Shown: positions 248 to 45,313 of the stretch, one piece after another
How positions within the stretch are numbered: the first letter of the stretch is position 1
Layout of the letters: every line of letters begins with the position of its first letter
Assembly: GCA_043810775.1 (NCBI GenBank)
Contig: JBDRNU010000025.1
Location: 59,153-123,152 of the forward strand
Direction: 5' to 3'
Source: an archaeon
Lineage (GTDB): Archaea > Nanobdellota > Nanobdellia > Pacearchaeales > GW2011-AR1
Length of the DNA stretch: 64,000 nt
Notes under the pieces: generated by a model
The model's database searches: none
What the model was told of the DNA's origin: nothing
Seen by the model: only the letters and a program-made list of their open reading frames with translations
Program-made: the position numbers and the translations under genes

Positions 248-982
248 TTACTCGTAACCTAGTTTAGCAATATCAATAGGCATGCTGACATTTTTTCTCT
301 CAAATCTAGCCCTGTAAGTTCCATCTCCGTTTTCAGTTAAAACTACATCAGCGTAGTCTTCCATTCCGAAAACTCCGCCAATATCTTCGCAACTTGTAAC
401 TGGAGTTTTTCTACCAGTATTTACAGCAACTACTGCCATTGCTTCTAAAGAACCAGATTGTCCGCCTAAAACTGCTAGCTTTAAGTCAGGATTTTGAACT
501 AGCTCGTAAATTACTTCTTTTAGCATTTGACCTCTGCTTTTACAGATTTCATTAAAAGGAGTTGTTTTTCCACCATGATATGAATTCATAGTTGGATTTG
601 CAACTAAATCTCTTACGTAAGTGTCAGTGTCTACTTTTCCGCTTTTTACAGCATCTTCATTGTATACAATTCCATCGTCCCCAAGTCTTTCATCTTCCAT
701 AAATGGTCTTTTTTCAACACCATTTTCAGAAGGGTCAATTCCTAGAGCACCTAAATAAATAGCATTTGCAGTATGGGCAGTTCTATTTAATTTATTAGCT
801 CTAAGTAAGACATTTTTTGGTCCAACTTGGTTTTGTTTGCAGTATCCACCTAGAGTTTTTCTTGAAGTGTCATAGATTCTTTTAGAAGAATCCCACTGCA
901 CTGTATCTTCTATTGTTACTCCATTTGCGTCTTTAGGAACAATTCCGTGCCTTGATATTCTTATTCTTTTTTCTTTAATCAT
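248..982 (-). CDS. Divergent histidine phosphatase (phosphoglycerate mutase-like) superfamily protein
   Basis: N-terminal IRISRHG, LNRTAHTA (cf. L.RA.QTA), EDERLGD (cf. D.RL.E); second His position appears to be Q. ATG at 982 is preceded by AAGGAG (ORF track start 1009). Confidence 0.55.
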   Translation of the reverse strand: MIKEKRIRISRHGIVPKDANGVTIEDTVQWDSSKRIYDTSRKTLGGYCKQNQVGPKNVLLRANKLNRTAHTANAIYLGALGIDPSENGVEKRPFMEDERLGDDGIVYNEDAVKSGKVDTDTYVRDLVANPTMNSYHGGKTTPFNEICKSRGQMLKEVIYELVQNPDLKLAVLGGQSGSLEAMAVVAVNTGRKTPVTSCEDIGGVFGMEDYADVVLTENGDGTYRARFERKNVSMPIDIAKLGYE

Positions 983-1033
983 TTTACTTCTCCTTAATTT
1001 ATTTAACATAATAGAGTATTTAAATCTTTCTAT

Positions 1034-1059
1034 TTGTCACTATTATTTAATGGTGACAA
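1034..1059. promoter_or_regulatory. 11-bp imperfect inverted repeat (operator or terminator hairpin)
   Basis: TTGTCACTATT-attt-AATGGTGACAA (10/11), between the stop at 1060 and the BRE/TATA of the 248-982 gene. Confidence 0.4.
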
Positions 1060-2805
1060 TTACTTGTTTTTTCCTTTAATCTTTCTTACAGTGCCATGAT
1101 TCATTCTTAGCTCGAGTTCATCTCCGTTTTTCAGTACTTTTGTGGCTATTTTTGTGCCTATTATGCAAGGTTTATTCATTTCTCGAGAGACTATAGCTGC
1201 ATGGCTTGTAATCCCCCCTATATCAGTTATTACTGCTCTTGCTTTTCTCATTAGTTGGACAAAATCTGGACGAGTCATTGGAGTAATTAGAATTTCATCT
1301 TCTGAAATTGTTTCTTTATAGGGATTTAAAATTACTTTAGCTTTTCCTAAAATAATTGGATTTTCACCTCTACAAGCTATGATTCCTTGGAAATTTTCTG
1401 TTTCAGAATGTGAATTTTCTTTTAAGAGTATATTTTTAATTGGAATTACATCATTTCCTGTAAAAAAGCTAATCTTATTTTTATTTTGAGATACTATAAA
1501 AATACCTTCTCTTCTTTCATTCAGTATATTTATATCAAGGTTTTTTTCAAGTAAATCTGGGAGTTCACTTATTTTTGCGTAAGATGTTAGTTTTGGTTCT
1601 AGTCCTGTTCTTTTTCCAAATTCTTCAAAAAATCTGAACATATGATGCAGCATCATTAGAACTATCTTTTTTCTTTCGTCTTTTATCCATGTTACATTTT
1701 GAATGTGCTGTAGTTCTTGGTCTATTTCTGAAGGTATTTTAAATTGTTTTATTATATTATTTCTTTTTTCTTTAATTGCTTCTGTATCTTCAAGTTCATT
1801 AAGTTCTTTTTTTAAATCAGTTAGGGTAAATTCTTTTAGTGCTCCTTTTATAAATTCAGTGAATTCTATTATTGAGAGTATTGTCCATTGCCCATATGAA
1901 TTCTGCACCCAATAATAATTTTGCTGATGCTCTTGTATTGCTCTGAATATTTCTGGATAATTCATTTTTAGTTCTGCTAGATAATCTGCATAAGGTAGAT
2001 TTTTTATAAGATTTCTTTGACGAGGGCTTTGAAAGTATTTTAAAATTAATCTTAGGAAGTCTCTTCTTTCTCTTGCTACAAATGATAATTCAAATGGAAG
2101 TGTTAGAGTTGCAAATGATTCTTTTGCTTTTTTTTCATCACCAATTAGCTTTGTAATTTTTGGCATGTAATAATCATCTAAATAATGATTATATGGTTCA
2201 ACTACTAGGCCTACTTCCCAGAATTTTCCTAGAACTTTGTTAAATTTATTAAATTCTTCAACTAGTGCTTCATTTGATAAAGAATCAATTTTAATGAATT
2301 CTAGTCTTTTTAGGAATTTTTCTGTTTTTTCATAAATCTCTTCATATTCTTTTAAGAAGATTTCAATTTTTTCTGGATCTTCTTTTACTGCTTTTATTTG
2401 CGCTTTACAGCTTTCTAGTGATTCTTGGATACTTAGAATTTGTTTCATGTAGTCTTTTTCTGTGTAAAATATTGAGTGTGATAAGCAGGGTTTGAAGTAT
2501 TTTTCAGTGTCTGACATTTTTAAGATTCCTATTTCAAGAGTTAAAGGAAGGCCTGGAGCTTCGTCTGTCCAGAATTTTTCTGTTTTTATATAATTCATAA
2601 ACTGGTCTTTATTAATTTCTTCTATTTCTTGTTTTTTATTTAGGAATTTATCAAGGTCTTGTTTTTTATAACGTCTATCTCCACGATTACCTATTCTAAT
2701 TGCTTTTAAAATTCCAGAATTATCCCAGTTTCTTAGGGTTATTTTACTAACTCCAAGTAGTTTAGCTGCTGAACTTATATCAATTAAATCTGTATTTTTA
2801 ACCAT
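1060..2805 (-). CDS. HTH_17/MerR-like DNA-binding domain + variable helical domain + PEP-utilizer phospho-His swivel domain
   Basis: N-term AAKLLGVSKITLRNWDNSGILKAIRIGNRGDRRY; C-term MTRPDF..TDIGGITSHAAIVSREMNKPCIIGT. Confidence 0.85.
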   Translation of the reverse strand: MVKNTDLIDISSAAKLLGVSKITLRNWDNSGILKAIRIGNRGDRRYKKQDLDKFLNKKQEIEEINKDQFMNYIKTEKFWTDEAPGLPLTLEIGILKMSDTEKYFKPCLSHSIFYTEKDYMKQILSIQESLESCKAQIKAVKEDPEKIEIFLKEYEEIYEKTEKFLKRLEFIKIDSLSNEALVEEFNKFNKVLGKFWEVGLVVEPYNHYLDDYYMPKITKLIGDEKKAKESFATLTLPFELSFVARERRDFLRLILKYFQSPRQRNLIKNLPYADYLAELKMNYPEIFRAIQEHQQNYYWVQNSYGQWTILSIIEFTEFIKGALKEFTLTDLKKELNELEDTEAIKEKRNNIIKQFKIPSEIDQELQHIQNVTWIKDERKKIVLMMLHHMFRFFEEFGKRTGLEPKLTSYAKISELPDLLEKNLDINILNERREGIFIVSQNKNKISFFTGNDVIPIKNILLKENSHSETENFQGIIACRGENPIILGKAKVILNPYKETISEDEILITPMTRPDFVQLMRKARAVITDIGGITSHAAIVSREMNKPCIIGTKIATKVLKNGDELELRMNHGTVRKIKGKNK

Positions 2806-2854
2806 TTTTAGCTAATTTTGTATATTTAAGTTGATATATATTTATAATTAATTA

Positions 2855-2869
2855 TTTATAAATGTTTCG
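2855..2869 (-). promoter_or_regulatory. Archaeal BRE-TATA promoter
   Basis: Minus strand CGAAACATTTATAAA; near-identical boxes at 7828-7843, 26352-26365 and about 41085-41098. Confidence 0.6.
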
Positions 2870-2883
2870 ATTTATACGAACTT

Positions 2884-4212
2884 TTAAAGAATCTTTATTA
2901 CACCAGTATTAGCATCTACTTCAACTTCTTGGCCGTCCTTTAAGACTTGTGTAGCTATTTTAGTTCCTATAATACAAGGCTTTCTTAGTTCACGAGCTAC
3001 TATAGCAGCGTGGCAAGTAATTCCACCTTCATCTGTTATTATAGCAGAAGCTTTTTTACAAGCTGTTATGATATTTGGACGTGTCATTTCACTAACTAAG
3101 ACGTCTCCTTCTTGCATATTTTTTATTTTTTCCAAGTGATTGTCAGCGTTTCTATAGGAAAGCACTATAACCTTACCTTTTACTTTTCCTTTGTTTGCTA
3201 TAGCTCCTTTTAATTCTTTTAAATCTAATTTTACAGATAAACTTTCTTTAATCTCTTTAGCTTTATTTCCTTCAAGTATATTTATTTCATTATTTTTTAA
3301 AATAAATATTGAGCTTTCTTTTCTTTCCTGTAATATGCTTTTTTCAATTTTCTTTCCTGTTTCAAGCATTTTAGCTATTTCTTGATAATTGCAAAGTCTA
3401 AGCTCTTCTTTTGATATCTTAAGCCTGGTTTTTATTTCTTCTAGGATCAATTCATTATAATATAGGGCTTGCATCCAGATAAGCCTCATTCTAAATCTTT
3501 GCTCAGTTATATTTCTTAAGATATCTGAAATTAATACAGCTTCTCCTGGAATTTCAGAATTTTGAATTAAGCTCATTCTTTCTTTTTGATCTGCATCCTC
3601 TTCTTTGAATAAGACTTTTTTATTAAGATTTTTGTCTATTTTAGCTTCTTCTGACTTAATTGATTCTGCAAATGATTTTAAGAAAGGATTATTTTTTTCA
3701 TTAATGATGAATCTCTTTTTAGGAGTAGTCAAAGCAATTATTATTCCATCTATATCTTTTATTCCTTGACTGGTTAATAAATCTCTTAATTTTTTTTCTA
3801 TTTTACTTATATTATGTGGTTGAGTTGCAATGTAGCTTATAAAACACTCTTTTATTCCCCTTCCAAAAGTATCTAGTAAGTTACTTAACTCTTCATTGCT
3901 TATTTCTTTGAAATCTTGTTCAGCTAGTTTTTGCATTTGGGTCACTATCGAACTGTAAGCAGTTTTTACTTCTTTTTCAAATTTCTTGAATTTAGTAGTA
4001 CTTCTGAAAAATTCATATCCTTCATTTTCAGCTTTTTTAAGTTCTTCTTCTTGAACATAAAATTCAGCATTAAATCCATTACCCCATACTAGTGCTTGGC
4101 TTATTCCAAATCCAAATCTTTCTTTTAGTCTTGGACCGTAATTTAGCAAGATACCATTTAAGTCATAGTAATTCTGATTTTCATCTGCCCACATTAAAAT
4201 ATATTTATTCAT
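2884..4212 (-). CDS. Variable helical domain + PEP-utilizer phospho-His swivel domain
   Basis: C-term TDEGGITCHAAIVARELRKPCIIGT..VEVDANTG; no ATP-grasp; start overlaps upstream gene by 8 nt. Confidence 0.85.
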   Translation of the reverse strand: MNKYILMWADENQNYYDLNGILLNYGPRLKERFGFGISQALVWGNGFNAEFYVQEEELKKAENEGYEFFRSTTKFKKFEKEVKTAYSSIVTQMQKLAEQDFKEISNEELSNLLDTFGRGIKECFISYIATQPHNISKIEKKLRDLLTSQGIKDIDGIIIALTTPKKRFIINEKNNPFLKSFAESIKSEEAKIDKNLNKKVLFKEEDADQKERMSLIQNSEIPGEAVLISDILRNITEQRFRMRLIWMQALYYNELILEEIKTRLKISKEELRLCNYQEIAKMLETGKKIEKSILQERKESSIFILKNNEINILEGNKAKEIKESLSVKLDLKELKGAIANKGKVKGKVIVLSYRNADNHLEKIKNMQEGDVLVSEMTRPNIITACKKASAIITDEGGITCHAAIVARELRKPCIIGTKIATQVLKDGQEVEVDANTGVIKIL

Positions 4213-4960
4213 TTTGTCCTCTTTCTGTATATTCTCTGCATCTAGCTCTTACTTTATTATCGCTTTCTTGCACATATGCACTCCATTTTTCATAATTTAG
4301 ATACTTCAGTCTTCTTATACCTGAATAAGCATCTGCCCAGATTCTTTCACCCAATTTTCTTCCTTGAACTATAAGTTCGTGAGCTTCTTGATCTCTAGCT
4401 GCTTTATCTCCAGCACGGTATTCCCATCCATTCATTGAATAGTATCTTGCATCTGCAGGTTTAAGGTCTTCTGGAGTTTTTCCTTGTTTTTTAGGAATAA
4501 CTACTCTATTTACAAAGTCATTAGGGACTTCTGTGTCATCCATATCTTTTCCATAAACTTTATGTGTGAATTTTGTTCCTTCAAGAACTGTTTTGTATTT
4601 TCTTCCTTTTCTTTGACCTGCTTGTTTTTGATATTCTCCAAGAATATGTGTGTCTACTGCATAAACTTTATCAGCTTGTCTTAATTTTTCTCTTGTTGAA
4701 GCTTTTCTACCAGTATTCCTAAGGGCCTCTATGTCTAAGTTATATCTACCTATACTTTCTTCTAAAGCTTGAATATGCTTATCTTCAATAGGATGGTTTT
4801 CTTTATTTCCTATATAGTCTGGATGACCCATGCCTTCGGCTGTAATCTCTAATTCACCTAAATGTGCTAGTTCATCTATTCTAGTCTGAGCTATAGCAGC
4901 AAGAGTTGTCCCTCTCCTACCCCCATAACATCCGACCAGAGCTTTGTATTTGTTTTTCAT
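4205..4960 (-). CDS. Divergent low-molecular-weight phosphatase (LMW-PTP/ArsC/PTS EIIB) fold protein
   Basis: KALVGCYGGRRGTTLAAI (P-loop-like, CX4R), ITAEG, LDI, KLRQADKVYAVD, GKDMDD align by eye with LMW-PTP motifs; GAGGT SD upstream. Confidence 0.5.
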   Translation of the reverse strand: MKNKYKALVGCYGGRRGTTLAAIAQTRIDELAHLGELEITAEGMGHPDYIGNKENHPIEDKHIQALEESIGRYNLDIEALRNTGRKASTREKLRQADKVYAVDTHILGEYQKQAGQRKGRKYKTVLEGTKFTHKVYGKDMDDTEVPNDFVNRVVIPKKQGKTPEDLKPADARYYSMNGWEYRAGDKAARDQEAHELIVQGRKLGERIWADAYSGIRRLKYLNYEKWSAYVQESDNKVRARCREYTERGQNE

Positions 4961-5071
4961 TTTATTTTTATACCTCTTAATAATAGTAACATCTTTATAT
5001 ATTTAAAAGCTTTTCCTTGTTTTTTGTGAATTATAGGGAAAGTTTATATAGTATTCCATATTTTAACAATT

Positions 5072-6052
5072 ATGATAGATATTGATGTAAAAGATAGGAA
5101 AATATTGTATTATCTTTCCCAAGATGGAAGAGCTAGTAATACTCATCTTTCAAAGAAAGTTGGGTTGAGTAAAAATGCTGTTGCATATAGAATTGAGAGA
5201 CTGAAAAAATTAAAAGTTATAAAACACTTTGCTTCAATTGTAAATCTTGGAAGCTTAAATTTCACTACTTTTACTGTTTTGTTAAAGTTTAATGAGGATA
5301 TATATGAAAATAGTTCTATTATTGAGTATTTTAAAAGCCATGATTATGTTGATTGGATGGTCAGCTTGTCTGGGCAGTGGGACCTTTTTATTGAGTTTGT
5401 TTCCAGGGATTTTAACCATTTGACTGAGATAATAGAGGAAATTATAAGTTATTTTAAAGATACGCTTGAAACTTATGAGTTATCTTATTCTAGGGTGACT
5501 TTAAGAGTTGAGCATCTTGTAAAGGATTTTTACCAGGACTTAAAACTCAGTCCTATTAAGACTAGTGAGAGAACTAAGCAGATCTTTAAGCTAGATAAGA
5601 TTGATAAGCAGATACTAGAAGTTCTAAATAAAGATTCTTCTCTTCCTTATCTTAGTATTGCTGAGAAATTAAAGACCAGTATTGATGTTGTGAGATATAG
5701 GATTAGTAATTTAGTTAGTAAAGGAGTGATAGTTAAATTTTTCCCAGAAATATCCCTTCCCAAGTTAGGTTATACTGAGTATTTGTATAGTTTAAGATTA
5801 AAGAACTTATCTTCTGAAAAATTTAGGGATATTCAGAATGATATAAAAAATAATAACAATATAACTTATGCGTTTGTAGATAGTGTTAGTTTAAGGATTA
5901 TTTTTGTCTGTGCATTTAAATCTCCAGAAGCTATAGATCATTTATCCAGAGGCTTAAGAAAAAAGTATATGGGCAGTATAGATAAACAGGAGTATCTTAT
6001 AATTAAGGAACAGATGCTGTTTAATTTATTTCCCAGGGGATTAACTAAATAA
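5072..6052 (+). CDS. Tandem (double) Lrp/AsnC family transcriptional regulator
   Basis: Two repeats of D.KD.KIL..L..D.R.S...LS.K.G.S...V.YRI..L...GVI, each followed by a RAM-like domain. Confidence 0.9.
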   Translation: MIDIDVKDRKILYYLSQDGRASNTHLSKKVGLSKNAVAYRIERLKKLKVIKHFASIVNLGSLNFTTFTVLLKFNEDIYENSSIIEYFKSHDYVDWMVSLSGQWDLFIEFVSRDFNHLTEIIEEIISYFKDTLETYELSYSRVTLRVEHLVKDFYQDLKLSPIKTSERTKQIFKLDKIDKQILEVLNKDSSLPYLSIAEKLKTSIDVVRYRISNLVSKGVIVKFFPEISLPKLGYTEYLYSLRLKNLSSEKFRDIQNDIKNNNNITYAFVDSVSLRIIFVCAFKSPEAIDHLSRGLRKKYMGSIDKQEYLIIKEQMLFNLFPRGLTK

Positions 6053-7780
6053 TTATTTTATGACTTTTATTAGCCCGTGATGCATTCTTATTTCAATTTC
6101 TTGACCTGATTGAAGAACTTTTGTAGCATTTTTAGTGCCTATAATGCATGGTTTGTTCATTTCTCTTGAAACTATAGCTGCATGACAAGTTATTCCACCT
6201 TCATCTGTAATTACTGCTCTTGCTTTTCTCATTAGTGGGACGAAATCAGGACGAGTCATACTAGTAACTAGTATTTCATCTTCTGAAATTGTTTCTTTGT
6301 TAGGGTTGAGAATTACTTTTACTTTCCCCCGTATAATTGGTTCGCTGCCCCTACATGCGACGTTTCCCTCTATTTCATATACAGTCTTAGTCTCAATATT
6401 TTTTGAGACTAGTTTTTTAAATTCTAGAAATTCATTTCCTACTAGTATGCTGAATTTGTTTGGTTTTTGAGATATAAACGAGCAGCCATTACGCCTTTGC
6501 TGTAAAGTGGAAATTGGCATTGAATTTTGGAGTATAAGGGGGATTTCTTCTGTTTTTGCATATCCTATTAGTTTTTCATTAATTCCTGTTCTTCTTGCAA
6601 ATTCTTCTATAAATCCGTGTATATTATGTAGATATATTAAAATAACTCTTTTTCTATCATCTTTAATCCATGTAATATTTTTTATATATTCTAACTCCTT
6701 TACTACTTTTTCAGGGATTTTTAATTCTTTAATTAGCTCTTCTTGTTCTTTTTTAAGAGCATCAAAATTTGTTATTTTGTCTAGTTCTTGTCTAGCTTGT
6801 TCAATTGTAGATTCTTTTATAGAGTCCCTTAAAATATTCAGAAAATCAGTTACTTGCAAAATTGTTCTATCTAGATAATTGTTTTGAACCCAAAAAAATT
6901 CTCTTTGGTGTTTTAAAAGAGCTTCAAAGAATTTGGGTTCGTTAATTTTTATATATGTTAAGAAATCTTCGTTTGAATCATTCATAATTTTTTTTCTTTT
7001 TTTATTATTGTTTAGATATTTTATAATCATATTTAGAAGGCTTTTTCTTTCTTCAGCTGTGAATGAGGACTTTGTTGGAAGAGTCAGCAATGAAAAAGCA
7101 TGTCTTGCTTTTTTCTTGTCACTTGCTTTTTTCTCAAAATCTAGGTAATAAAGGTCTGTAAATGGGTCGTGTGATTCAACAAGTAAATTAATATTCCAAA
7201 ATTCAATTAAAGGCTTGTTAAATAAATTAAATTCTTTTAATAGTTCTTCTGTTGAAAGTTCTTTGAGTCTAATAAATTCTAAACGAGTCATTGCTGTTTC
7301 AAATTTTTTAGATCGCTTAGCCCATTCTTTAAAGAAATTTTCTATTTTTTTTGGATTTTTATTTACTGCTTCAAACTGGGCCCTACAATTTTCAATAGAT
7401 TCTGATAAACTTAAAGATTGGATTATAAAATCATTTTCTGATAAATGTGGGTAGAAGGTTACTCCTGGTTTAAACCAATTTTCCATTTTAGCGCCCTCTT
7501 TAATTCCTAGTTCTGCTGTAATAGGGAGTCCTGGAAGTTCTTGAAACCAGAAATCATTGTGTTTTACCCAGTTCCAGAAGAATTCTTTGTCAATTTCTGG
7601 ACATTTTTCCTTATTTAAAAGCTTGTTTATATCCTCTTTTTTATAACGTCTATCTCCACGATTACCTATTCTTACTGCTTTTAAAGTCCCAGAATTATCC
7701 CAGTTTCTAAGGGTTTTCTTACTAATCCCTAGCTGTTCTGCAGCTGTATTTATTCCAACTAATTCTTCATTTTTAGCCAT
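6053..7780 (-). CDS. HTH_17/MerR-like + variable helical domain + phospho-His swivel domain (paralog of 1060-2805)
   Basis: AAEQLGISKKTLRNWDNSGTLKAVRIGNRGDRRY; TDEGGITCHAAIVSRE; ends near-identical to the 581-aa protein. Confidence 0.85.
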   Translation of the reverse strand: MAKNEELVGINTAAEQLGISKKTLRNWDNSGTLKAVRIGNRGDRRYKKEDINKLLNKEKCPEIDKEFFWNWVKHNDFWFQELPGLPITAELGIKEGAKMENWFKPGVTFYPHLSENDFIIQSLSLSESIENCRAQFEAVNKNPKKIENFFKEWAKRSKKFETAMTRLEFIRLKELSTEELLKEFNLFNKPLIEFWNINLLVESHDPFTDLYYLDFEKKASDKKKARHAFSLLTLPTKSSFTAEERKSLLNMIIKYLNNNKKRKKIMNDSNEDFLTYIKINEPKFFEALLKHQREFFWVQNNYLDRTILQVTDFLNILRDSIKESTIEQARQELDKITNFDALKKEQEELIKELKIPEKVVKELEYIKNITWIKDDRKRVILIYLHNIHGFIEEFARRTGINEKLIGYAKTEEIPLILQNSMPISTLQQRRNGCSFISQKPNKFSILVGNEFLEFKKLVSKNIETKTVYEIEGNVACRGSEPIIRGKVKVILNPNKETISEDEILVTSMTRPDFVPLMRKARAVITDEGGITCHAAIVSREMNKPCIIGTKNATKVLQSGQEIEIRMHHGLIKVIK

Positions 7781-7827
7781 TTTTTAATAATTTTAGCTTT
7801 TTTAGTTGGAATTAGTTGACCTTTGCA

Positions 7828-7857
7828 TTTATAAATGTTTCGGTTAAAGGGTATTTA
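7828..7857 (-). promoter_or_regulatory. BRE-TATA promoter plus a 16-bp box shared with 9577-9592
   Basis: TTTATAAATGTTTC-GGTTAAAGGGTATTTA versus TATATAAATCTTTT-GGTTAAAGGGTATTTA. Confidence 0.55.
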
Positions 7858-7872
7858 AAAAGAAGTTAGGGA

Positions 7873-9534: not shown

Positions 9535-9589
9535 TTTAACTTGTTATAAGTTATTATAAGTATATATAAATCTTTTGGTTAAAGGGTAT

Positions 9590-10186: not shown

Positions 10187-10223
10187 AAATTTTAAATAGA
10201 TTTAGATTATTTAAGTTTTTCGA

Positions 10224-11654: not shown

Positions 11655-13189
11655 TTTTTCATACCTATTTTTCTAATTATTCCAGTTGAACCGTGAATTT
11701 CAACTATTTCACCGTTTTTAAGCACTTTTGTACCAATCTTAGTGCCTACAACACAAGGAACTCCAAGCTCGCGAGAAACAATAGCAGCATGGCAAGTAAT
11801 TCCCCCCTCGTCTGTTATGATTGCTGAAGCCAGCCTCATAGCTGGAACAAAATCAGGAGTAGTCATTGTAGCCACTAGAATTTCACCTTTTTGCATTTCA
11901 TTGACTTTGCTAGGATCTAGCAAGACTCTCACATTACCTAGAGCATTTCCAGGGTTGGCTGTTGTTCCTTTAATTTCTGTTACAGTTTGGTCTATTTTTT
12001 CTACAAATGCATCAAATATCTTGTCTGCTTCTTGTCCAGAATATGCTGAAAACTTTCCTTGGATGCAGTAGAAAAATCCTTTTTCATTTCTTCTTTCAAG
12101 CTCTTTTTTATCAATTTTGTTTTTAAGCAGAGCTTCTTTTAGTTCATTAAATAAGAGCATGTTAAGTAATTGCCTTGGAATGTTAAGTCTTTTTGCTGTT
12201 TCTTTTCTCCAATTAATCATGTGATAATGAGATATAGTGTATTTCTCTTTTTTAAAGTCAAGAAGATAGCCTGAATCAGCGATTTCTTGGAATAATCTAA
12301 CTATTTCTTTATGGAGTTTAAGTTCTGTTATAATTTGATTCTTTTTTGCTTTAATATTTTCAGAGTATTTTTCAAGTTCGCTTATCTTATCTTGCACTTT
12401 AATTTTGCTTTTTAATCTGTCTTTTATAACAGTTAGAAAATAATCCAAATCCCATATTGCACTTCCATAATCATATGGTACCCACGAGAATTTTTTTTCA
12501 TGCTCTAAGAGTTTTTTGTAAAATGGTTGAAAATTTTTTAAAGATTCTTTAATTTTCTTTATTTCTTTAATATCAAATACCTTTTCTAGGGCTTTATTTC
12601 CTTTGACTTCTTTTATTAGCTTAAATAATTCTAGTTCTTCTTTATTGACAAAGCTTGGAGTATCAGGTGTTATCAGTGTTGTTATATATGAGTCTAGTAT
12701 TTTTTTATCATTTATTTTATCTTGGATTTCTTTTTTCAGCTCTTCTACAAATCCAAACCTTAGTCCCCAACTAACCATTTCACTATATGGGTATGCTTCA
12801 AGGTATAACTTATAGTATTCCCTGTATATTTCAAATAGTTCTTCATTACTCTTCTTTGTCAAATCTTTATTTGAAATTTCAAGCGTAAACTTATTCAGTG
12901 TTCCCACTTTTTCTTTGAAGTTTTTTATAAGATTTTTTACTGAAAGTTTATTGCTCTTTGCATTTTTGATTACTGTGTTTTCAAATTTACTAAAGAAATC
13001 TTCACGAAAAACCCAGTACATTCTTCCTTTTTTAAATGCTACTACTAAGTCTCTTAAACTTTCTCCTAAGACTTCTGCTACGTTTGAGGTTGCTCCTTCC
13101 ATTATTGGTAGAGCTAGTATCATATTAACATCATTATTGCTTCTTTCTTGGGCTATTACTAATCCTTTTGGGCTTATTTTTATTTTCAT
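11651..13189 (-). CDS. Variable helical domain + phospho-His swivel domain
   Basis: MTTPDF..TDEGGITCHAAIVSRELGVPCVVGT; ATGA overlaps on both sides. Confidence 0.85.
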   Translation of the reverse strand: MKIKISPKGLVIAQERSNNDVNMILALPIMEGATSNVAEVLGESLRDLVVAFKKGRMYWVFREDFFSKFENTVIKNAKSNKLSVKNLIKNFKEKVGTLNKFTLEISNKDLTKKSNEELFEIYREYYKLYLEAYPYSEMVSWGLRFGFVEELKKEIQDKINDKKILDSYITTLITPDTPSFVNKEELELFKLIKEVKGNKALEKVFDIKEIKKIKESLKNFQPFYKKLLEHEKKFSWVPYDYGSAIWDLDYFLTVIKDRLKSKIKVQDKISELEKYSENIKAKKNQIITELKLHKEIVRLFQEIADSGYLLDFKKEKYTISHYHMINWRKETAKRLNIPRQLLNMLLFNELKEALLKNKIDKKELERRNEKGFFYCIQGKFSAYSGQEADKIFDAFVEKIDQTVTEIKGTTANPGNALGNVRVLLDPSKVNEMQKGEILVATMTTPDFVPAMRLASAIITDEGGITCHAAIVSRELGVPCVVGTKIGTKVLKNGEIVEIHGSTGIIRKIGMKK

Positions 13190-14238
13190 TTTGCTTTTTT
13201 TAGTATTTTAATTATACCTTTATCTGCATCTACTTCTACTATATCATTATCATTTAAAACTTTTGTGGCTATCTTAGTTCCTATAATGCATGGTATTTTC
13301 ATCTCTCGGGCTACAATTGAGGCATGACAAGTTATACCTCCTTCATCTGTTACTATTGCAGCAGCTTTTTTTAAATATTTGACTATTTCAGGACGAGTCA
13401 TTGGTGCTACTAAGATAAAATCTTTTTTGTTTTTGAAGATTTTTTTGTAATTTCCATAATCTTTTTCTGTTATTTTTATTACTTGGCCTTTTGCGAATCC
13501 AGTGTAAGCTGAATTTCCTGATATTTGGTTCTTTTCACTAAGTTTTGGTTCTTGATTTACTAAGAAATTTTCAATTTCTTCTGCTTCTTTATTCAAGTAA
13601 ATATTGAATTGATTATTAATAATTGTAATTGCTAGGGGTCTATTTTCTGTTATTTTTATTTTATTTCCTTTTAATATATTAATAATTTCTTCTGAGGTAG
13701 CTCTTTCAAGTTGTTTAATCTTATATTCTAATTTTTTTTGTATATACTTTATTATTTTATTATATGCTCTCCATATTAGGTCTACAAATTTGGAAAGTTT
13801 TATTCTTATTTCTGGTAGCTCTTTTAATAATTTGGAGTCATTTGTGTCAAAATATTCTTCTGTGTAAAATAAGTATGTTTTATAAAGTTCAAGGCATTGG
13901 TTATTTAGAAAGTTCATTCCTTTAATTGCTTTATCTTTATCTAGTTTTGAATTAATGAAACTCTTTACTTTCTGCTTGTTATTTTTTATATATTTCAAGC
14001 TATCTGAATTTATTTTATTTATTAGTTTTTCATCAGAAAGCTTTATTTTTGAAGCTTGTTCATCCCAGACTTGAAAATTTTTATTTTGAAAAACTACCAA
14101 ATTAGGTGTTTTGTTTGCAATAATCTTGTAATATGGATTATTAATATGTGCATGGCAGGCATATTCCCATGATATGACTGGAGTTATTGAAAACACTTCA
14201 TATTTACTGAATTTATGTGTTTTTAGAAGGGTTATCAT
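13186..14238 (-). CDS. Short variable domain + phospho-His swivel domain
   Basis: TDEGGITCHASIVAREMKIPCIIGT..VEVDADKG. Confidence 0.85.
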   Translation of the reverse strand: MITLLKTHKFSKYEVFSITPVISWEYACHAHINNPYYKIIANKTPNLVVFQNKNFQVWDEQASKIKLSDEKLINKINSDSLKYIKNNKQKVKSFINSKLDKDKAIKGMNFLNNQCLELYKTYLFYTEEYFDTNDSKLLKELPEIRIKLSKFVDLIWRAYNKIIKYIQKKLEYKIKQLERATSEEIINILKGNKIKITENRPLAITIINNQFNIYLNKEAEEIENFLVNQEPKLSEKNQISGNSAYTGFAKGQVIKITEKDYGNYKKIFKNKKDFILVAPMTRPEIVKYLKKAAAIVTDEGGITCHASIVAREMKIPCIIGTKIATKVLNDNDIVEVDADKGIIKILKKAK

Positions 14239-15302
14239 TTTATAATTCTCACTATACCTTTATCTGCATCTACTTCAACCAAGTCTCCATCTTTTAATAG
14301 CTGAGTGGCTATTTTTGTGCCGATTACACAAGGAACTCCAAGCTCGCGAGAAACAATAGCAGCGTGTGATAGTAGGCCCCCCTCATCTGTTATAATAGCT
14401 GCTGCTTTTTTGCAGGCTAGAATAGTATCTGGGCGAGTCATTTCTGTAACTAGAATTTCACCTTTTTTAAATTTAAATACTTCTTTAAGGATGTTCTTTT
14501 TATTATGAAGAAGAATTCTTACTTTGCCGCTAGCTTTTCCTTTCATTGCTGTTTTACCTATAAGTTTATTTACTTTTTTAACAGATAGCATTTCCTTGTA
14601 TATTTTTTTAAATTTTTTGCCAGTTATTAAGGACGGCTTGCCTTTTAGAGTGTAAAATAAGTATCCTCTTGATCTTTCTTCAAGAATCTTGTGAGAAACT
14701 TTCTTACCATTGAAAATTTTTATGATCTCTTGATTATTATAAAAAAATAAATCTTTTACTTTAACTTGAAATCTTCTTGAAATTTCTTTAAGCACTACAC
14801 CTAGAAGAAAATAGAATAAAACCTCCCCTTCTTTTCTCAAAATAAATCTTAATTTGCTTAAATCTATAATTAAACTTTCATGTTTTGACGCTTCTTTTTC
14901 CAGGTTAAACAGGAAAAAATCCTCTGTTTTCATATAAATATTAGAATAATTAACTAAAGTTTTTAGAATATTATTAAAAAATAAACTTTTTAATTGGGAA
15001 TTAGACAGATTTTTAATTTTTATATTATTAAAATATTGCTTTGTTTTTTCAATTTCCTTAAGTATTTGTTGGACCTGCTTCTTGTAATTTTTAATATTTC
15101 CATTATTTGTGAAGAATTTATAGCCATATCCTGCTGTTTTCTTGTCTCTGTCATTTAAATAATAAACGTGAATGACTGAATTTTTGTAAAGAATGAGCAT
15201 GTCATTTGCAAAAAGCTCTATGCTCTTATTGGATAGGAAAAATAGGGGTAGCCTAAGCTCCCTTGCCCAGAATGTTATTTTGTATATTCCTTTTGGCAAC
15301 AT
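14235..15302 (-). CDS. Short variable domain + phospho-His swivel domain
   Basis: TDEGGLLSHAAIVSRELGVPCVIGT..VEVDADKG. Confidence 0.85.
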   Translation of the reverse strand: MLPKGIYKITFWARELRLPLFFLSNKSIELFANDMLILYKNSVIHVYYLNDRDKKTAGYGYKFFTNNGNIKNYKKQVQQILKEIEKTKQYFNNIKIKNLSNSQLKSLFFNNILKTLVNYSNIYMKTEDFFLFNLEKEASKHESLIIDLSKLRFILRKEGEVLFYFLLGVVLKEISRRFQVKVKDLFFYNNQEIIKIFNGKKVSHKILEERSRGYLFYTLKGKPSLITGKKFKKIYKEMLSVKKVNKLIGKTAMKGKASGKVRILLHNKKNILKEVFKFKKGEILVTEMTRPDTILACKKAAAIITDEGGLLSHAAIVSRELGVPCVIGTKIATQLLKDGDLVEVDADKGIVRIIK

Positions 15303-15303
15303 T

Positions 15304-18300
15304 TTATTTAGCTTTCTTTTTAGATAGGACTTTTACTACACCAATATCTGCATCTACTTCCACAACTTCTCCTTCACCCAAAATATCTGTTGCATTTACT
15401 GTTCCTACTATTGTTGGTTTTTTTAGTTTCTCAGCAACAATTGCAGCATGACAGCTTCTTACTATTCCTTCATCAGCGTCAACTTCAACTCTTTTTCCTT
15501 CTTGCAAAAATTCTGTTGCTATTTTAGTGCCTATTATTGTAGGTTTTTTAAGCTCACGGGCTACTATAGCTGCATGGCAGGTAATTCCCCCTTCATCTGT
15601 TACAATTCCTCCTGCCAGTTTCATGGCTGGTACGTATCTTGGATCAGTCATACTTGTAACTAGAATATCTCCTTTTTCAATTTTTTTTGCATCTTCTATT
15701 TTTCTTATAATTCTGACTCTTCCTATAGCTTTTCCTTTATATGCTGAGACGCCTTTAATTTCTTGGTTTTCTTTTTTTTCATTAAGTTCATCCCATAAAG
15801 ATTCTTTGTAAAATATTTCTTGACCTTTCGAGGTATATTTTATGATGCAAAATTTTTTTCTTTTTTCAATATCTGGAATTTTCTTGGTTTTAAGGAATTC
15901 TTCAAATTCATCTATTGTGAGGTATTTTAAAGAGCCTTTTTTAGTATTGTACTTTTTTTCAAGTTTTGTTAGTATTTTTTCCTCGATTATGAAACTTCTT
16001 TTATGCACATCTTCATATGCTCTTCTTATTTCTAGGGCTATATCATTAATTTCTTTTGGAATATCTTCTCCATAGTACATTGGAACTTCATATCCTGAAA
16101 GAATAACATTTGTAAAGTCAACAAATGTTTTGTAGAGTTTTACTGCTGCTTTTTCTGGGTTTTTGTAGCTATCTTTGTAAAATTTGTTAAATTCAGTGAG
16201 TTTTTTGTCATATTGCTTTTTTATTTTTCTAAAATCCTCTAAAGTATTTCTTTGGATAAGGCTTTTACTTCTTTTTCTTCCATCTTCTTTTGATGTATAG
16301 TGGTAGAGGATGTCATCTCTCATTGTTATATAACATGGACTTGATCCTACTCCAAAAAATTCCTTATTTTCATTAAATAAACCTTTAAAGACACAAGTTG
16401 TTCCTAAAATAGAATAGTCTCTTTGATGTCTGTCATAATCAAGAGACTTGTCAAATTCTAAAAGAGTTGTTTTTTTATCATGTCTGTGCTGGCTTTTTTC
16501 TAATATTATTACTTGGGCGTGATTTGCTTTTACTTCAACTAAATCCCTGTCTTTAAGGATTTTTGTTCCAACTTTTGTGCCAATTATACAAGGTATTCCA
16601 AGTTCACGAGAGACAATTGCAGCATGGCAAGTCATTCCTCCTTCATCTGTAACTATTGCTGATGCTCGTTTCATAGCTGGAAGATATTCTGGGCGAGTCA
16701 TTCCAGTTACAAGTATCTTCCCTTGTTCAAAGTTCTTAATGTCCTCTAGTGTTTTGCAGATTGAAACCTCCCCTATTGCCTGTCCTGTAGATGCACATGT
16801 TCCACTTATTGTTGTTGACTCGATAATTTTTTCTTGATCTGAAATTTTCTCATATATTTCTTTTGCTTTATCCCCGCTAAAAATTATTATATTATTTGGA
16901 AGAGAGGGATTCATAATCCATATGAACATTTCTTCTCTATTTTTGATTTCTTTCTGAAATTCTTTATCTAAAAACTTCTTGCTTTCAATTTCCCGAGGCA
17001 TTAGATAATAGAGTTTTTTAACAGGAATTTTATATTTTTCTGCTATTTTGTGCAAGACTTTATCATGCTCGCATACAGCTTTCATAATATTTTCTTTTCT
17101 TTCATCTTGCCAGAGTGTACAAAATGAGAGAAGATTAGCAAGATTTTGAGTTTTTCGATCTATATTGTATTTTTTAATTATTTGTTTTTTTGCAACTCTT
17201 ATTTTAATAAAGTGATCTTTTGGTAGCAATTTAATTGAATCTTTTTGCTCAAGTAGCTCCTTTATTGTTAGAGGATCAGTTCCAGCATAACTGCTTTTAA
17301 TCCATTCAAATTTTTCAAGGTGTTTTTCAAGAAGTTTTTTTTGCTTATTCTTATCTTTAGATTTAAATGCTTTTAATAGACTTTCATCATGGCGATTGTT
17401 AAATGATTCTTCTTCTGGCATGGTTAATACATTTAACGCTTCATTAAGCTGTTTTAAATCTTTTATTTTTTTATCAAGCAAATGTTTTAATACATGGCTT
17501 TGAGTTAAGGAAAATGCTTCAATTACATGACCTGTTCCTACTCCATAACCAATTAGGTCAAAAGTTATCTTAAATACCTCTAACAATTCTTTCTCTGAAT
17601 AATCTGTTTTAGCTTTTGATTTTAGCTTGTTGTATTGCTTTGAAAATTGGTTGCTGTAGATTATTCTGGTTTTTTGAAAATATTTTTCATCTTTTTTTAA
17701 TTTATTAAGTATAATCTCTCCAACTCTCTCTAAGTCAGATTTTATGTAAGACATGTCCCCAAAGTCTTTTTCTGACTTGAACATAAATTTCTCATAGCTA
17801 TATCCTAAAGGATCCTTCATTTTATCTGTTGAGTCTACAGCTGCATTAAAGAATACTGGATATGCAGAGCCTTGTTGAGTTATTCTCTCTTCTTTTAGTA
17901 TTTTTTCGATAATTTCGCTACTTGGGTTCTGGTCATTAAGTATTTTTACTATACCTTTATCTGCATCCACTTCGACTTCCTGGCCGTCTTTAAGTACCTT
18001 TGTAGCTATATTAGTGCCAATTATACAGGGTTTTTTTAGCTCACGAGAAATAATAGCTGCATGACATAAAATTCCCCCCATATCTGTTATAATAGCAGCT
18101 GCTTTTTTCATCAATGGAACATAATTTGGATCTGTCATACTACACACAAGAATCTCCCCTTCTTTAAATTTTAAAAAGTCATGACTTCCAAGCACTATTT
18201 TAATATTTCCTTTAACAACTCCTTTATAGGTTGGTGTGCCTGTGAAATCTTTTGTTTCTTTTAGTATGGTATCAAGATAATCCTTTTTTAGCTTGTCTAA

Positions 18301-20307
18301 ATCTTTTTTGCATAATAAATAGTTATTATTTATAGAAATCATAGCCACATCATTTCCTAGACAAGAATCTTCTAAAGTGAGTTTCTTTCTTTCCAATAAC
18401 TTATAAAATTGATCAAGTGGCAGAGATAACAATTTTTCGTAAGATATTTTATTCGCTGATGCAATTTTTTTAAAAACAGGTTTTAAATTGTATACTGCTT
18501 TGTTAGTCACTTCATTATTAAGAATTCTTCCTACTGAAAAGATGTTTAGGATTTTAATTAATTCATTTAATTTTTTATCTTTAAAATTATGTTTTTCAAA
18601 TCCTCTTTTTTCATTATCTGCTCTCTTAATCTGTTCTAGAATATCTTGTTTAGTGTAACCTTCTCCAGATAGAAAGTATTGGTTTAAATAACTGTATTCT
18701 TCAATCACTTTATCTATATCTTTTGAACTAAATTTTCCTTTTTCTCTTAATCTTGCTATTTCAGTCTCAAGTTTAAATGCATCTGATTCTTCATCTTTAT
18801 CTAATAATTCTGGCACTGTAATTTGTTTTATTTTTAGTTCATCAAATCTTTTCAATATTGATTCTTCAAGATAATTACTCATATCCCTTAATATTTCAAA
18901 TACAACAAGAATTGTTAATACTTTCTCTAGGATATTTGATACTGATTTTTCATTATAGTTTTTCTTTTTAGATATTTCCCCTATTTCTTTCTCAAGTTCT
19001 TTTCTGAATTTCTCTTGATTTTTATTAAAATTATAAATAAAACTAAAGTCTCCTGAATCTATTCTTCCAACTACTTTTTTTTCAATTATTTCAAGTTCTT
19101 TTTCTGCGACGTAAACATCATAACCTGCTGATAAATATTTAATAGGAGGAATATCTTGAATTCCATATTTTTTTAAATAAAATCTAGATTGTGAACTATT
19201 GAATATATCAAACATTAATCTTGGAACTCTCCAACTACCTACTTTTTTCCAATTATCTTTTTTGTATTTATCAATAAATTCTTTGTATGAAATTTGTTCA
19301 CTTTCTTTAAATGGAGTTTCAGAATAAGTCACTTCATCTTTTTTTTTAGGCTCTTCCTCTTCTAAGGAAGTTAGAGTAGTAATTGGGCGAGATTGAGTTA
19401 TGTATAGCTTACCTTTTTCCATTGCCCATTCAACATCTACTGGGAATCCATAATGGTTTTCTATCTTAGCTATTAGTTTTGAAAGTTCAATTATTTCTTT
19501 ATCTGTTAAAATCTGTTTGTTTCCTTCTTCTCCTAGCTCTCGCCACTCATTTCCCCCACCCTTTACTCTGAATAAACCTCTTGATTGTTCTGAGATATTT
19601 TTATCAATAATATGCCAGTCCTGCTTGTCTATAACATAGCTATCTGGAGTTATCTGGCCTGAGACTATTGCTTCTCCTAAGCCTAGACCTGCTTCAATTA
19701 TTAGCTGGTTTCTGTCTTGAGTTACAGGATGAACTGAGAATGCTATTCCAGATTCTTCACTAGCAACCATTTTTTGAACTACTACTGCTACTGATATTTT
19801 TTGATTGTGGAGTTTTTGCTCAAATCTATAGAATATTGCTCTTGGAGTGAAAAGTGAGGCCCAGCATTTTTTTACGTTTTCAAGCAAGCTGGATTTTGTA
19901 GTGTTTAGATAAGATTCAAGCTGGCCTGCCCAGGCTGCTGAAGCTGAATCTTCTGCAGTTGCGCTGGAACGGACTGCTACATATTCTGCACCTAGTTTTT
20001 TAAATTCTACTAGAATCTCGGTTTCAATATCTTTAGGCATTTCTGCATTAAGAATTAGAGCTTTTATTGTTTCTGAAGCTTCTTCTGATGTATGCACTTC
20101 TTCTGTATTGACAGTGTCCATGGCTGCGTCAATTTCTGTTATGAGATCCGCTTCTTCAATGAATTTTTCAAAAGCATCTGATAATATAACAAATCCTTCT
20201 GGAACAGGAATTCCTGCCTGAGTCATTTCACCTAAACTAGCTCCCTTACCACCAGCTATATTTGCATCATTTTTACTAATTTTGGAAAAATTGAGTGTAA
20301 ATTGCAT
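15304..20307 (-). CDS. PPDK_N ATP-grasp domain + three [variable domain + phospho-His swivel] modules + partial fourth swivel; rifampin phosphotransferase-like architecture
   Basis: GGKGASLGEM, VAVRSSATAED, GLGEAIVSG, DVEWA, QSRPIT (about 19372-20307); His motifs at 18061, 16624, 15574 and 15448; no C-terminal PEP/pyruvate TIM barrel. Confidence 0.9.
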   Translation of the reverse strand: MQFTLNFSKISKNDANIAGGKGASLGEMTQAGIPVPEGFVILSDAFEKFIEEADLITEIDAAMDTVNTEEVHTSEEASETIKALILNAEMPKDIETEILVEFKKLGAEYVAVRSSATAEDSASAAWAGQLESYLNTTKSSLLENVKKCWASLFTPRAIFYRFEQKLHNQKISVAVVVQKMVASEESGIAFSVHPVTQDRNQLIIEAGLGLGEAIVSGQITPDSYVIDKQDWHIIDKNISEQSRGLFRVKGGGNEWRELGEEGNKQILTDKEIIELSKLIAKIENHYGFPVDVEWAMEKGKLYITQSRPITTLTSLEEEEPKKKDEVTYSETPFKESEQISYKEFIDKYKKDNWKKVGSWRVPRLMFDIFNSSQSRFYLKKYGIQDIPPIKYLSAGYDVYVAEKELEIIEKKVVGRIDSGDFSFIYNFNKNQEKFRKELEKEIGEISKKKNYNEKSVSNILEKVLTILVVFEILRDMSNYLEESILKRFDELKIKQITVPELLDKDEESDAFKLETEIARLREKGKFSSKDIDKVIEEYSYLNQYFLSGEGYTKQDILEQIKRADNEKRGFEKHNFKDKKLNELIKILNIFSVGRILNNEVTNKAVYNLKPVFKKIASANKISYEKLLSLPLDQFYKLLERKKLTLEDSCLGNDVAMISINNNYLLCKKDLDKLKKDYLDTILKETKDFTGTPTYKGVVKGNIKIVLGSHDFLKFKEGEILVCSMTDPNYVPLMKKAAAIITDMGGILCHAAIISRELKKPCIIGTNIATKVLKDGQEVEVDADKGIVKILNDQNPSSEIIEKILKEERITQQGSAYPVFFNAAVDSTDKMKDPLGYSYEKFMFKSEKDFGDMSYIKSDLERVGEIILNKLKKDEKYFQKTRIIYSNQFSKQYNKLKSKAKTDYSEKELLEVFKITFDLIGYGVGTGHVIEAFSLTQSHVLKHLLDKKIKDLKQLNEALNVLTMPEEESFNNRHDESLLKAFKSKDKNKQKKLLEKHLEKFEWIKSSYAGTDPLTIKELLEQKDSIKLLPKDHFIKIRVAKKQIIKKYNIDRKTQNLANLLSFCTLWQDERKENIMKAVCEHDKVLHKIAEKYKIPVKKLYYLMPREIESKKFLDKEFQKEIKNREEMFIWIMNPSLPNNIIIFSGDKAKEIYEKISDQEKIIESTTISGTCASTGQAIGEVSICKTLEDIKNFEQGKILVTGMTRPEYLPAMKRASAIVTDEGGMTCHAAIVSRELGIPCIIGTKVGTKILKDRDLVEVKANHAQVIILEKSQHRHDKKTTLLEFDKSLDYDRHQRDYSILGTTCVFKGLFNENKEFFGVGSSPCYITMRDDILYHYTSKEDGRKRSKSLIQRNTLEDFRKIKKQYDKKLTEFNKFYKDSYKNPEKAAVKLYKTFVDFTNVILSGYEVPMYYGEDIPKEINDIALEIRRAYEDVHKRSFIIEEKILTKLEKKYNTKKGSLKYLTIDEFEEFLKTKKIPDIEKRKKFCIIKYTSKGQEIFYKESLWDELNEKKENQEIKGVSAYKGKAIGRVRIIRKIEDAKKIEKGDILVTSMTDPRYVPAMKLAGGIVTDEGGITCHAAIVARELKKPTIIGTKIATEFLQEGKRVEVDADEGIVRSCHAAIVAEKLKKPTIVGTVNATDILGEGEVVEVDADIGVVKVLSKKKAK

Positions 20308-43306: not shown

Positions 43307-43307
43307 A

Positions 43308-45302: not shown

Positions 45303-45313
45303 GGGAGTTTATA

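Follow-up and report, generated by a model that had tools for sequence, protein, structure and literature searches.

A gene array combining eleven swivel modules with a single ATP-grasp domain in a Pacearchaeales genome: a candidate one-to-many form of two-component dikinase

The subject of this analysis is a stretch of 64,000 nucleotides (the window; contig C25:59153–123152, from JBDRNU010000025.1 of assembly GCA_043810775.1) from an archaeon of the Pacearchaeales, and in particular an array of genes at one end of it in which many phosphohistidine swivel domains accompany a single ATP-grasp domain. The source genome amounts to 995 kb in 26 contigs and is 80% complete, and the GC content is ~0.30 across the whole window with no break in composition at the array. 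The window also encodes an RNase P p30-like protein and PheRS subunits of archaeal type, and those close homologues of the PheRS alpha subunit that bear names are labelled 'archaeon', 'Nanoarchaeota archaeon' and 'Candidatus Pacearchaeota archaeon', in line with a DPANN host. Part of the stretch occurs in two DNA sequencing runs, both from the same groundwater-metagenome study (shares of 0.27 and 0.15), and no RNA run is listed among the runs containing it. The swivel family PF00391 scored above its Pfam cut-off in nine minus-strand genes, eight with a single swivel and one with four stretches of similarity. A motif scan identified 11 intact swivel histidine codons (1201, 3010, 6182, 8005, 10350, 11789, 13324, 14364, 15574, 16624 and 18061), and all 11 swivels keep GG..[CS]HA.I..RE. 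The sole ATP-grasp (PPDK_N) of the window lies at 19336..20262 (minus strand), and the TIM barrel PF02896 is absent from the 47 open reading frames (ORFs) scanned in the window; genome-wide, PF02896 matches on contig C7 only, in a classic 859-aa (amino acid) phosphoenolpyruvate (PEP) synthase. Four gene junctions in the array, read directly from the sequence, comprise three ATGA overlaps and one 1-nt gap. An earlier note on this DNA, made from its letters alone, had described nine co-oriented genes with 11 swivels at these His codons, tightly coupled junctions, and one ATP-grasp without a pyruvate barrel, and hidden Markov model scans (PF01326, PF00391 and PF02896), the motif scan and the sequence agree with each of these observations.

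The hub of the array, on the minus strand as are all nine swivel genes, is a 1667-aa protein (15304..20307) that opens with the ATP-grasp (PPDK_N at aa 16–324, 326.7 bits) and continues with three modules, each composed of a domain like the rifampin-binding domain (RIF-BD) of rifampin phosphotransferase (RPH) followed by a swivel. Cis module 1 (aa ~325–795; 17923..19335, approximate boundaries) has its swivel histidine at His749 and is without the [DE]x[RK]K motif considered below. Cis module 2 (aa ~796–1273; 16489..17922) is of a long type, with His1228 and the sequence QDERK, and cis module 3 (aa ~1274–1620; 15448..16488) is of a short type with His1578, both assigned by motif scan and alignment. 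The fourth PF00391 stretch (aa ~1621–1667; 15307..15447) repeats the second half of swivel 3 in tandem and in truncated form. It covers profile positions 34–72 at 34.5 bits with the N-terminal half missing, and shows weak self-similarity at the DNA level (81% over 48 nt). The extra 'CHAAIVA' histidine of this copy sits in a degraded motif (…SCHAAIVAEK…). From its sequence, the copy resembles a scar left when modules recombined; as a truncated duplicate it represents a partial 12th swivel in the window, so the earlier count of 11 holds for intact swivels but overlooked this remnant. The coding frame of the hub gene contains 1 stop, whereas the two alternative frames contain 166 and 199. Base composition predicts a stop at any one codon with a probability of 0.087, at which 350 codons would stay open with a probability of 1.7e-14; the ORFs of the array are thus not chance frames.

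The remaining eight genes encode orphan modules, in which Pfam identifies PF00391 only, plus a helix-turn-helix (HTH) domain in three. Separated from the hub gene by the 1-nt gap is a short module of 355 aa (14235..15302, His313), and linked onward by the ATGA overlaps are a second short module of 350 aa (13186..14238, His305) and two long modules of 512 aa (11651..13189, His467, LDFKK) and 476 aa (10224..11654, His435, RDSRK). Farther along are three long modules preceded by an HTH, of 553 aa (7873..9534, His510, HDFRK), 575 aa (6053..7780, His533, KDDRK) and 581 aa (1060..2805, His535, KDERK), the latter two 49% identical, and an orphan of 442 aa (2884..4212, His401). The HTH domains are of the MerR/excisionase type (HTH_17 at 38–39 bits with a cut-off of 27; MerR_1 at 29–33 bits with a cut-off of 21.6). 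A further full module of the long type (491 aa) lies off the array on contig C3 (C3:73887–74099, plus strand) and is the 12th full module of the genome. Together, the module genes take up 1.66% of the genome DNA.

The earlier note placed a different helical domain behind each swivel, which does not hold. The middle domains link all-against-all by BLAST (27–49% identity over 200–600 aa), indicating that they are divergent paralogues of one fold. The same note's suggestion that this fold resembles the substrate domain of RPH agrees with both sequence and predicted structure. A bona fide RPH orthologue with a full-length match to structure 5FBS (P0039) aligns to residues 301–553 of the 7873–9534 protein (E 2e-18), and hhalign joins the HTH-module family to the RPH orthologue with a probability of 99% over 279 columns. 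An AlphaFold2 model of the 7873–9534 protein, built from 19 aligned sequences of the HTH family, reached a pLDDT of 89.8 and a pTM of 0.82, and the top six Foldseek matches to this long-module model were all RPH-Lm entries (E 1e-12 to 6e-11). Residues 59–552 of the model superpose (VIA-align) on residues 327–867 of RPH-Lm (5fbt) with a Z of 19.6 and a root-mean-square deviation (rmsd) of 5.5 Å over 437 residues at 16% identity, and residues 1–57 superpose on the MerR-like regulator BldC (6ama_P; Z 9.0, 56 residues). For the short orphan at 13186–14238, a model from a 21-sequence alignment (pLDDT 84.3) aligns over residues 1–347 to residues 323–867 of RPH 5fbu (Z 18.9, 293 aligned residues, rmsd 5.2). 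Judged from these models, the short module is a reduced version of the RPH-like domain of the long module.

The similarity to RPH extends to a catalytic site within the middle domain. In RPH, a second site of Arg666-Glu667-x-x-Lys670 is described as catalytic and as conserved even in distant clades (PMC4844700). This site aligns with KDERK, KDDRK, HDFRK, RDSRK, LDFKK and QDERK in six of the 12 modules of the genome, at 15–26% identity. The full R-[DE]-x-x-K is kept in the orphan at 10224–11654 (RDSRK), the first Arg is replaced in the five others, and the HDFRK of the 7873–9534 protein forms the D354/R356/K357 site. Among related loci in other genomes, [DE]x[RK]K occurs 120–210 aa before the swivel histidine in 159 of 211 long modules, whereas a control window contains it in 45 of 192 cases, and the Arg of the motif is at least 90% conserved across 32 long modules. 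This enrichment makes the long modules look catalytically RPH-like.

Outside of its ATP-grasp and swivels, the hub does not match chains of PEP synthase and RPH. When compared with 14 stand-alone ATP-grasps from other arrays, the hub ATP-grasp is 56–62% identical to nine and 38–45% identical to four, with the remaining one matching at 39% over half its length; the ATP-grasp of the genome's own PEP synthase is 45% identical. K21 and R113 are invariant among 14 array-type ATP-grasps (alignment A3), and Lys22 and Arg117 are reported as catalytic in RPH (PMC4844700). Mean column identity is 58% in this ATP-grasp alignment versus 31% in the modules. These comparisons point to the array-type ATP-grasps as one conserved orthologue group. 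Two PPDK_N matches occur elsewhere in the genome, the PEP synthase on contig C7 and, on contig C22, a divergent protein of 489 aa (C22:25708–26595, minus strand; 95 bits) with a degenerate swivel-like C-terminus. A weak PPDK_N match in a 558-aa ORF of another genome (G427) resembles the latter, and the two may constitute a separate small kinase family.

Module types found as orphans here are fused to ATP-grasps elsewhere, providing Rosetta-stone links between the two and supporting the earlier proposal of one ATP-grasp that charges modules both in cis and in trans. The middle domain of the 10224–11654 orphan shares 38% identity with the module that immediately follows the ATP-grasp in P0159, and fused modules of other large proteins match it too (P0095 module 1, P0074 module 4 of 4, P0046 module 4 of 5 and P0058 module 3 of 4). 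The middle domain of cis module 2 is 34–39% identical to module 1 of P0060, P0068, P0044 and P0071, the C3 orphan, whose type is fused into megaproteins elsewhere, matches modules in P0146, P0155 and P0098, and cis module 3 likewise matches fused modules. From these sequences it appears that module types are conserved between genomes, with position and fusion state shuffled. A predicted complex of the ATP-grasp, the 10224–11654 orphan and ATP scored 0.02 against a mark of 0.32 in a run made without controls, a result that speaks neither for nor against their association.

A survey of other genomes, as the earlier note had proposed for DPANN archaea and bacteria of the candidate phyla radiation (CPR), recovered similar neighbourhoods. 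Species-representative genomes were scanned with the alignment of the HTH-module family, which yielded 626 confirmed relatives, of which 66 loci were kept; a single orphan protein used as the query found no related locus. Based on their titles, 30 of the 66 loci are archaeal and 36 bacterial, with a few automated labels ('Gammaproteobacteria', 'Methanosarcinales') that are perhaps unreliable. With swivels counted by motif and ATP-grasps by BLAST (E ≤ 1e-10), at least three swivels were present in 33 loci and at least five in 20. Among these 33 arrays, 12 had one stand-alone ATP-grasp, five had one fused to modules and none had more than one, and the modules are co-oriented throughout, save for one gene in L066. 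The stand-alone ATP-grasps are ~280–350 aa in length (476 aa in L001). At its most fused, this layout is a 2969-aa ORF in L064 with an ATP-grasp and six swivels; with no such fusion, G235 has an array of 13 orphan modules and one 314-aa ATP-grasp on the same strand, within ~32 kb of a 1.0-Mb genome; in G427, a 331-aa ATP-grasp is flanked by seven modules. PPDK_N matches in ORFs of 6471 aa (G107:C1 ~29728–30399) and 4201 aa (G233:C37 ~82103–82915) were also observed, and these ORFs may be still larger multi-module proteins.

Searches with the protein sequences extend this range. The part of the hub outside the ATP-grasp has 321 homologues (E ≤ 1e-5) among proteins of 916–2918 aa, with sources that include Woesearchaeota, Nanoarchaeota, Paceibacterota, Parcubacteria, Buchananbacteria and Moraniibacteria; among the matches listed (120 of 321), 119 carry 2–6 swivel motifs. 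A profile of the middle domain with the swivel excluded recovered 6,738 cluster representatives at E ≤ 1e-3, 5,097 at 1e-10 and 2,057 at 1e-30, mostly 470–520 aa among the matches listed. Among 401 genomes sampled at phylum level (counted by eye, with the best 14 matches scored per genome), 26 including this one had 10 or more swivel matches and another 19 had 5–9, with first-look candidates numbering up to 49 per genome; six of the genomes in these tallies are flagged as unpublished, and none of the six is among those named here. For 15 swivel-rich genomes, exactly one strong PPDK_N besides the PEP synthase was present in 12. Taken from sequence comparison, arrays of 3–13 modules with at most one ATP-grasp, which may be stand-alone, fused to one module or fused to all in proteins as long as ~2,900 aa, recur in DPANN archaea and CPR bacteria. 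Public names for these proteins are generic ('PEP-utilizing enzyme', 'rifampicin phosphotransferase'), and no paper describing multi-swivel arrays or megaproteins of CPR or DPANN was found in a library of open-access and bioRxiv papers.

The closest described relatives are the two-component dikinases HpeHI, CreHI and PpsAB (phenylphosphate synthase), in which an H component and a separate ATP-grasp component, I, work in trans (Dexter et al. 2025, PMC12167813). The long and short models align over their whole length to the RIF-binding and swivel domains of RPH, and each orphan therefore corresponds to an H component, with a RIF-BD-like domain and a swivel histidine but no ATP-grasp. A stand-alone I gene is likewise present in the related arrays (12 of 33 loci), while in this window I is fused to three H. 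The systems differ in stoichiometry, with one H per one I in HpeHI, CreHI and PpsAB as published and 11 modules per ATP-grasp here (13 per one in G235). They also differ in setting: the published systems are described for phenolics and aromatic catabolism in free-living bacteria, whereas the array hosts are DPANN archaea and CPR bacteria. In addition, some H of the array carry an HTH, and there is a short H class without the second-site motif. Compared with PRK08296 models, the modules match at the swivel end only and far under the cut-off (e.g., 100 vs 578 bits). The earlier note considered the array a candidate for an undescribed system. The one-to-many layout of modules to ATP-grasp is the new element, but charging in trans is itself published for HpeHI, CreHI and PpsAB (PMC12167813), and the array is best described from its sequence as a one-to-many, partly fused variant of two-component dikinases and not as a categorically new system.

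The interpretation that is favoured here, with modest confidence, is a one-to-many two-component small-molecule dikinase of the RPH superfamily. The hub ATP-grasp would take the β-phosphate of ATP, yielding AMP and Pi in keeping with dikinase stoichiometry, and would load it on the swivel histidine of many H modules: three in cis, eight from neighboring genes and probably one on contig C3. Each phosphohistidine would then swing to the RIF-BD-like pocket of its own module, where the phosphate would pass to a small molecule specific to that module. In the three modules with a BldC/MerR-type HTH, this domain probably links transcription to the phosphate chemistry or to the binding of a ligand, and the phosphatase-like genes of the cluster probably act on phosphorylated products. 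Charging in trans is inferred because of the combination of the fusion and fission of module types, the rule of one ATP-grasp per array and the translational coupling of orphans to the hub gene. This core idea of the earlier note, one ATP-grasp charging many modules, survives all of the computational tests that were run; the phosphorelay, the sensing and the resetting by phosphatases that the note added to it are hypothetical.

Several observations weigh against this interpretation. The D-x-[RK]-K motif is absent from half of the modules in the genome (the 2884–4212 orphan, both short orphans, cis modules 1 and 3, and the C3 orphan), and among the related loci [DE]x[RK]K occurs in 11 of 31 short modules, approximately the background rate. 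Consequently, the short modules may not pass phosphate to a substrate in the manner of RPH, and to judge from their sequences they may be carriers or may work in a different mode. Module pockets are only 11–38% identical across genomes. Sixteen of the 33 arrays are without an ATP-grasp in the available locus DNA, many of them cut by contig ends. One of the swivel-rich genomes (G214) has two PPDK_N matches besides the PEP synthase, and two others, G081 (100% complete) and G208 (96% complete in four contigs), have only the PPDK_N of the PEP synthase at E ≤ 1e-10, from which it follows that a dedicated ATP-grasp is not universal. Lastly, genomes of the same family (sets of 36 and 27) have 0–3 swivel matches each; missing from close relatives, the array is accessory.

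Phosphorylation may instead serve to activate a substrate for further chemistry. Under such a scheme, which is rather unlikely, the modules would phosphorylate carbonyl or carboxylate groups (e.g., to acyl-phosphates) that neighboring enzymes convert, resulting in modular biosynthetic or salvage lines. The prodigiosin ligases PigC and RedH provide a precedent within the same superfamily architecture, though with a single module, and in these enzymes phosphorylation activates the substrate for condensation. PigC/RedH models are among the NCBIfam matches of the modules, but all are far under the cut-off (54–88 bits vs 1300 for the orphans scanned), and the 449 bits of the hub derive mostly from its ATP-grasp. 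The genes inserted in 21 arrays with at least five swivels are compatible with such chemistry, as they include hexapeptide-repeat transferases (5 loci), PTA_PTB (4 loci), S-adenosylmethionine (SAM) methyltransferases (9 genes in 2 loci) and a Cys/Met pyridoxal-phosphate enzyme (2 loci), in addition to HAD (4 loci), His_Phos_1 (4 loci) and TrmB-like (3 loci) proteins. PTA_PTB is located inside the arrays of G235, L001 and L016 and as a fragment in L041, and in the 1836-aa protein P0078 a PTA_PTB domain (aa 512–814, 237 bits) is fused in-line between swivel modules, which suggests acyl-phosphate chemistry for some modules. Conversely, no such partner is present in the window, PTA_PTB was not found in the source genome (80% complete), partners vary from array to array, and no condensation-type domain is fused in four of the five megaproteins scanned.

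The HTH domains raise the alternative of a set of regulatory phosphorelays or sensors, in which the ligand-dependent phosphohistidine state of a module would control transcription or partner proteins, by analogy with the regulators controlled by the phosphotransferase system (PTS). HTH domains above Pfam cut-offs in three of the eight orphans and the BldC-like fold are in its favor, and the combination of HTH and module is conserved at full length, with homologues of the 7873–9534 protein (34–60% identity) in other metagenomes and Parcubacteria. Regulators also recur by the arrays. A tandem double AsnC/Lrp-type regulator (5072..6052, plus strand) has homologues at two of the 66 loci, beside arrays L025 (two copies) and L015, and a TrmB-like regulator (22978..23733, minus strand; 47.8 bits to Pfam TrmB) has homologues at eight of the 66. 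Two HTH-module genes share a 15-mer, AAATACCCTTTAACC, which is found exactly twice on the minus strand, at 7842–7856 upstream of 6053–7780 and at 9577–9591 upstream of 7873–9534. In both cases it lies directly upstream of a BRE/TATA-like element; in the first it abuts the sequence CGAAACATTTATAAAT, within a promoter-like element (7827..7856, minus strand). Counted at up to three mismatches, the 15-mer shows no excess over shuffled sequence, and it could be an operator or merely a duplicated promoter. A sensory role for the whole array nevertheless appears quite unlikely, as eight of the 11 modules here have no output domain, an HTH was found by BLAST at one of the 66 related loci, and the RPH-type motif of most long modules would be needless for a pure sensor.

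The modules could also be independent of the ATP-grasp, as phosphate exchangers or as acceptors charged by PEP synthase or another donor, with the ATP-grasp serving the cis modules only. HpeH is reported to transfer phosphate alone, from 4-phosphoacetophenone to acetovanillone (PMC12167813), and G081 and G208, with at least 10 swivel matches each, have no PPDK_N besides that of PEP synthase at E ≤ 1e-10. Such independence is improbable given that four orphans are tightly coupled in an operon with the hub gene, that exactly one ATP-grasp is present in 17 of 33 arrays and more than one in none, and that orphan types are fused to an ATP-grasp elsewhere. Finally, a decaying or selfish expansion of paralogues with no present function, for which the absence from same-family relatives, the truncated swivel with which the hub gene ends and the shuffled module order might speak, is barely credible with 11 intact swivel motifs, open frames, thousands of conserved relatives and a dN/dS of 0.34 for the closest paralogue pair (0.34–0.56 overall, with dS saturated or nearly so). 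Pseudogene-like decay, named in the earlier note as an outcome that would speak against it, was not observed, and the open frames, the dN/dS and the wide middle-domain family all argue that the array genes are maintained.

Returning to the one-to-many dikinase, its components can be set against other enzymes that use a swivel. The first ~795 aa of the hub are arranged as in RPH (5FBS/5FBT/5FBU), with an ATP-grasp, a helical substrate domain and a C-terminal swivel histidine. RPH itself is single-chain and has only one module, and the identity of the modules to RPH in structural alignment is ~15–17%. Membership in RPH proper (NF041857) was rejected, with the hub at 489.8 bits against a cut-off of 999 and the orphans at 32–81 bits, and nothing points to rifampin as a substrate in a comparison that lies outside the rifampin-contact residues. 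The ATP-grasp and swivel histidine of PEP synthase and PPDK are homologous to those of the array, but the swivel is central in these enzymes and C-terminal to the helical domain here, and an identity as PEP synthase or PPDK was rejected in the absence of the PF02896 TIM barrel from the locus. Enzyme I and HPr of the PTS offer an analogy only, in that a mobile swivel phosphohistidine carrier is used and one upstream enzyme feeds many units. The PTS donor is PEP, via a barrel, and the proposed donor of the array is ATP, via an ATP-grasp. Membership in PTS Enzyme I was set aside with PF02896 absent from the window, and no HPr or EII was identified, though no search aimed at HPr or EII was made.

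DPANN archaea and CPR bacteria have ~1-Mb genomes with little annotated metabolism. If one ATP-grasp does serve many substrate-specific modules, the array would be a compact and evolvable way to phosphorylate many molecules. This would be relevant to the salvage or detoxification of compounds in ultra-small symbionts and to the misannotation of proteins as 'PEP synthase' and 'rifampicin resistance' in metagenomes, and it could be of use for enzyme engineering with swappable kinase specificity modules. A more speculative extension, which is unlikely as it stands, would be a hub-and-spoke distribution of phosphoryl groups in ultra-small symbionts, an ATP-powered analogue of the PTS in which up to dozens of interchangeable modules trap or activate metabolites scavenged from the host. 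In that case HTH modules would report flux, and shuffling, fusion and cross-domain transfer of modules would tune the repertoire.

Phosphatase-like genes adjoin the array and recur at other arrays, as the earlier note had anticipated at this locus. At one end, a 253-aa protein (248..1009, minus strand) with an RHG motif near its N-terminus resembles histidine phosphatases. It has no Pfam match, and the assignment comes from Atlas (features 0.95; 21 of 30 matches in His_Phos_1 clusters; structural TM 0.63–0.75). A homologue is present in array L025, and hhalign of a His_Phos_1-like neighbor cluster (A6) against the 253-aa protein gave a probability of 1.5% and so did not show homology. A 251-aa protein (4205..4960, minus strand) overlaps the 2884–4212 module gene by 8 nt and has a fold like that of low-molecular-weight phosphatases or arsenate reductases, as a lead only, with no Pfam or NCBIfam match, Atlas features of 0.87 and a TM of 0.51–0.54 to LMWPc clusters. 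Beyond the hub gene, a His_Phos_1 phosphatase (22014..22715, plus strand; Pfam 35.6 bits) adjoins an APH-like kinase (20986–22029) listed beside it, and the His_Phos_1 family is present in arrays L003, L007, L013 and L020.

An isochorismatase-family hydrolase (9590..10186, minus strand; Pfam 151 bits) is located inside the array, but without a homologue near other arrays by BLAST its membership is doubtful. The APH-like kinase, the 22014–22715 His_Phos_1 gene and the 251-aa protein also have no BLAST homologues in the 66 loci, and these four genes are therefore not counted as conserved parts of the array. Just 5' of the hub gene, an 84-aa protein (20605..20859, minus strand) with weak Pfam matches only has homologues (42–47% identity) no more than 10 kb from modules in L027, L053 and L038. 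In three CPR loci (L003, L013 and L014), a HAD hydrolase followed by an unannotated protein of ~320–340 aa lies between modules as a conserved trio.

The rest of the window includes genes of other kinds. Overlapping genes for HEPN and nucleotidyltransferase-domain proteins (24706–25736, minus strand) resemble a toxin-antitoxin pair, and a similar nucleotidyltransferase occurs near the L028 and L041 arrays. Two giant plus-strand ORFs, of 2546 aa (30834–38474) and at least 1625 aa (59125–63999, open at its end), contain beta-helix and Laminin_G_3 domains and from these domains are probably surface proteins. Between them, at 41473–55875, glycosyltransferase genes cluster with genes for an ABC-2 exporter, a sulfotransferase, a methyltransferase and five radical-SAM proteins, three with B12-binding domains; from its gene content, this looks like a locus for glycan or lipid modification.

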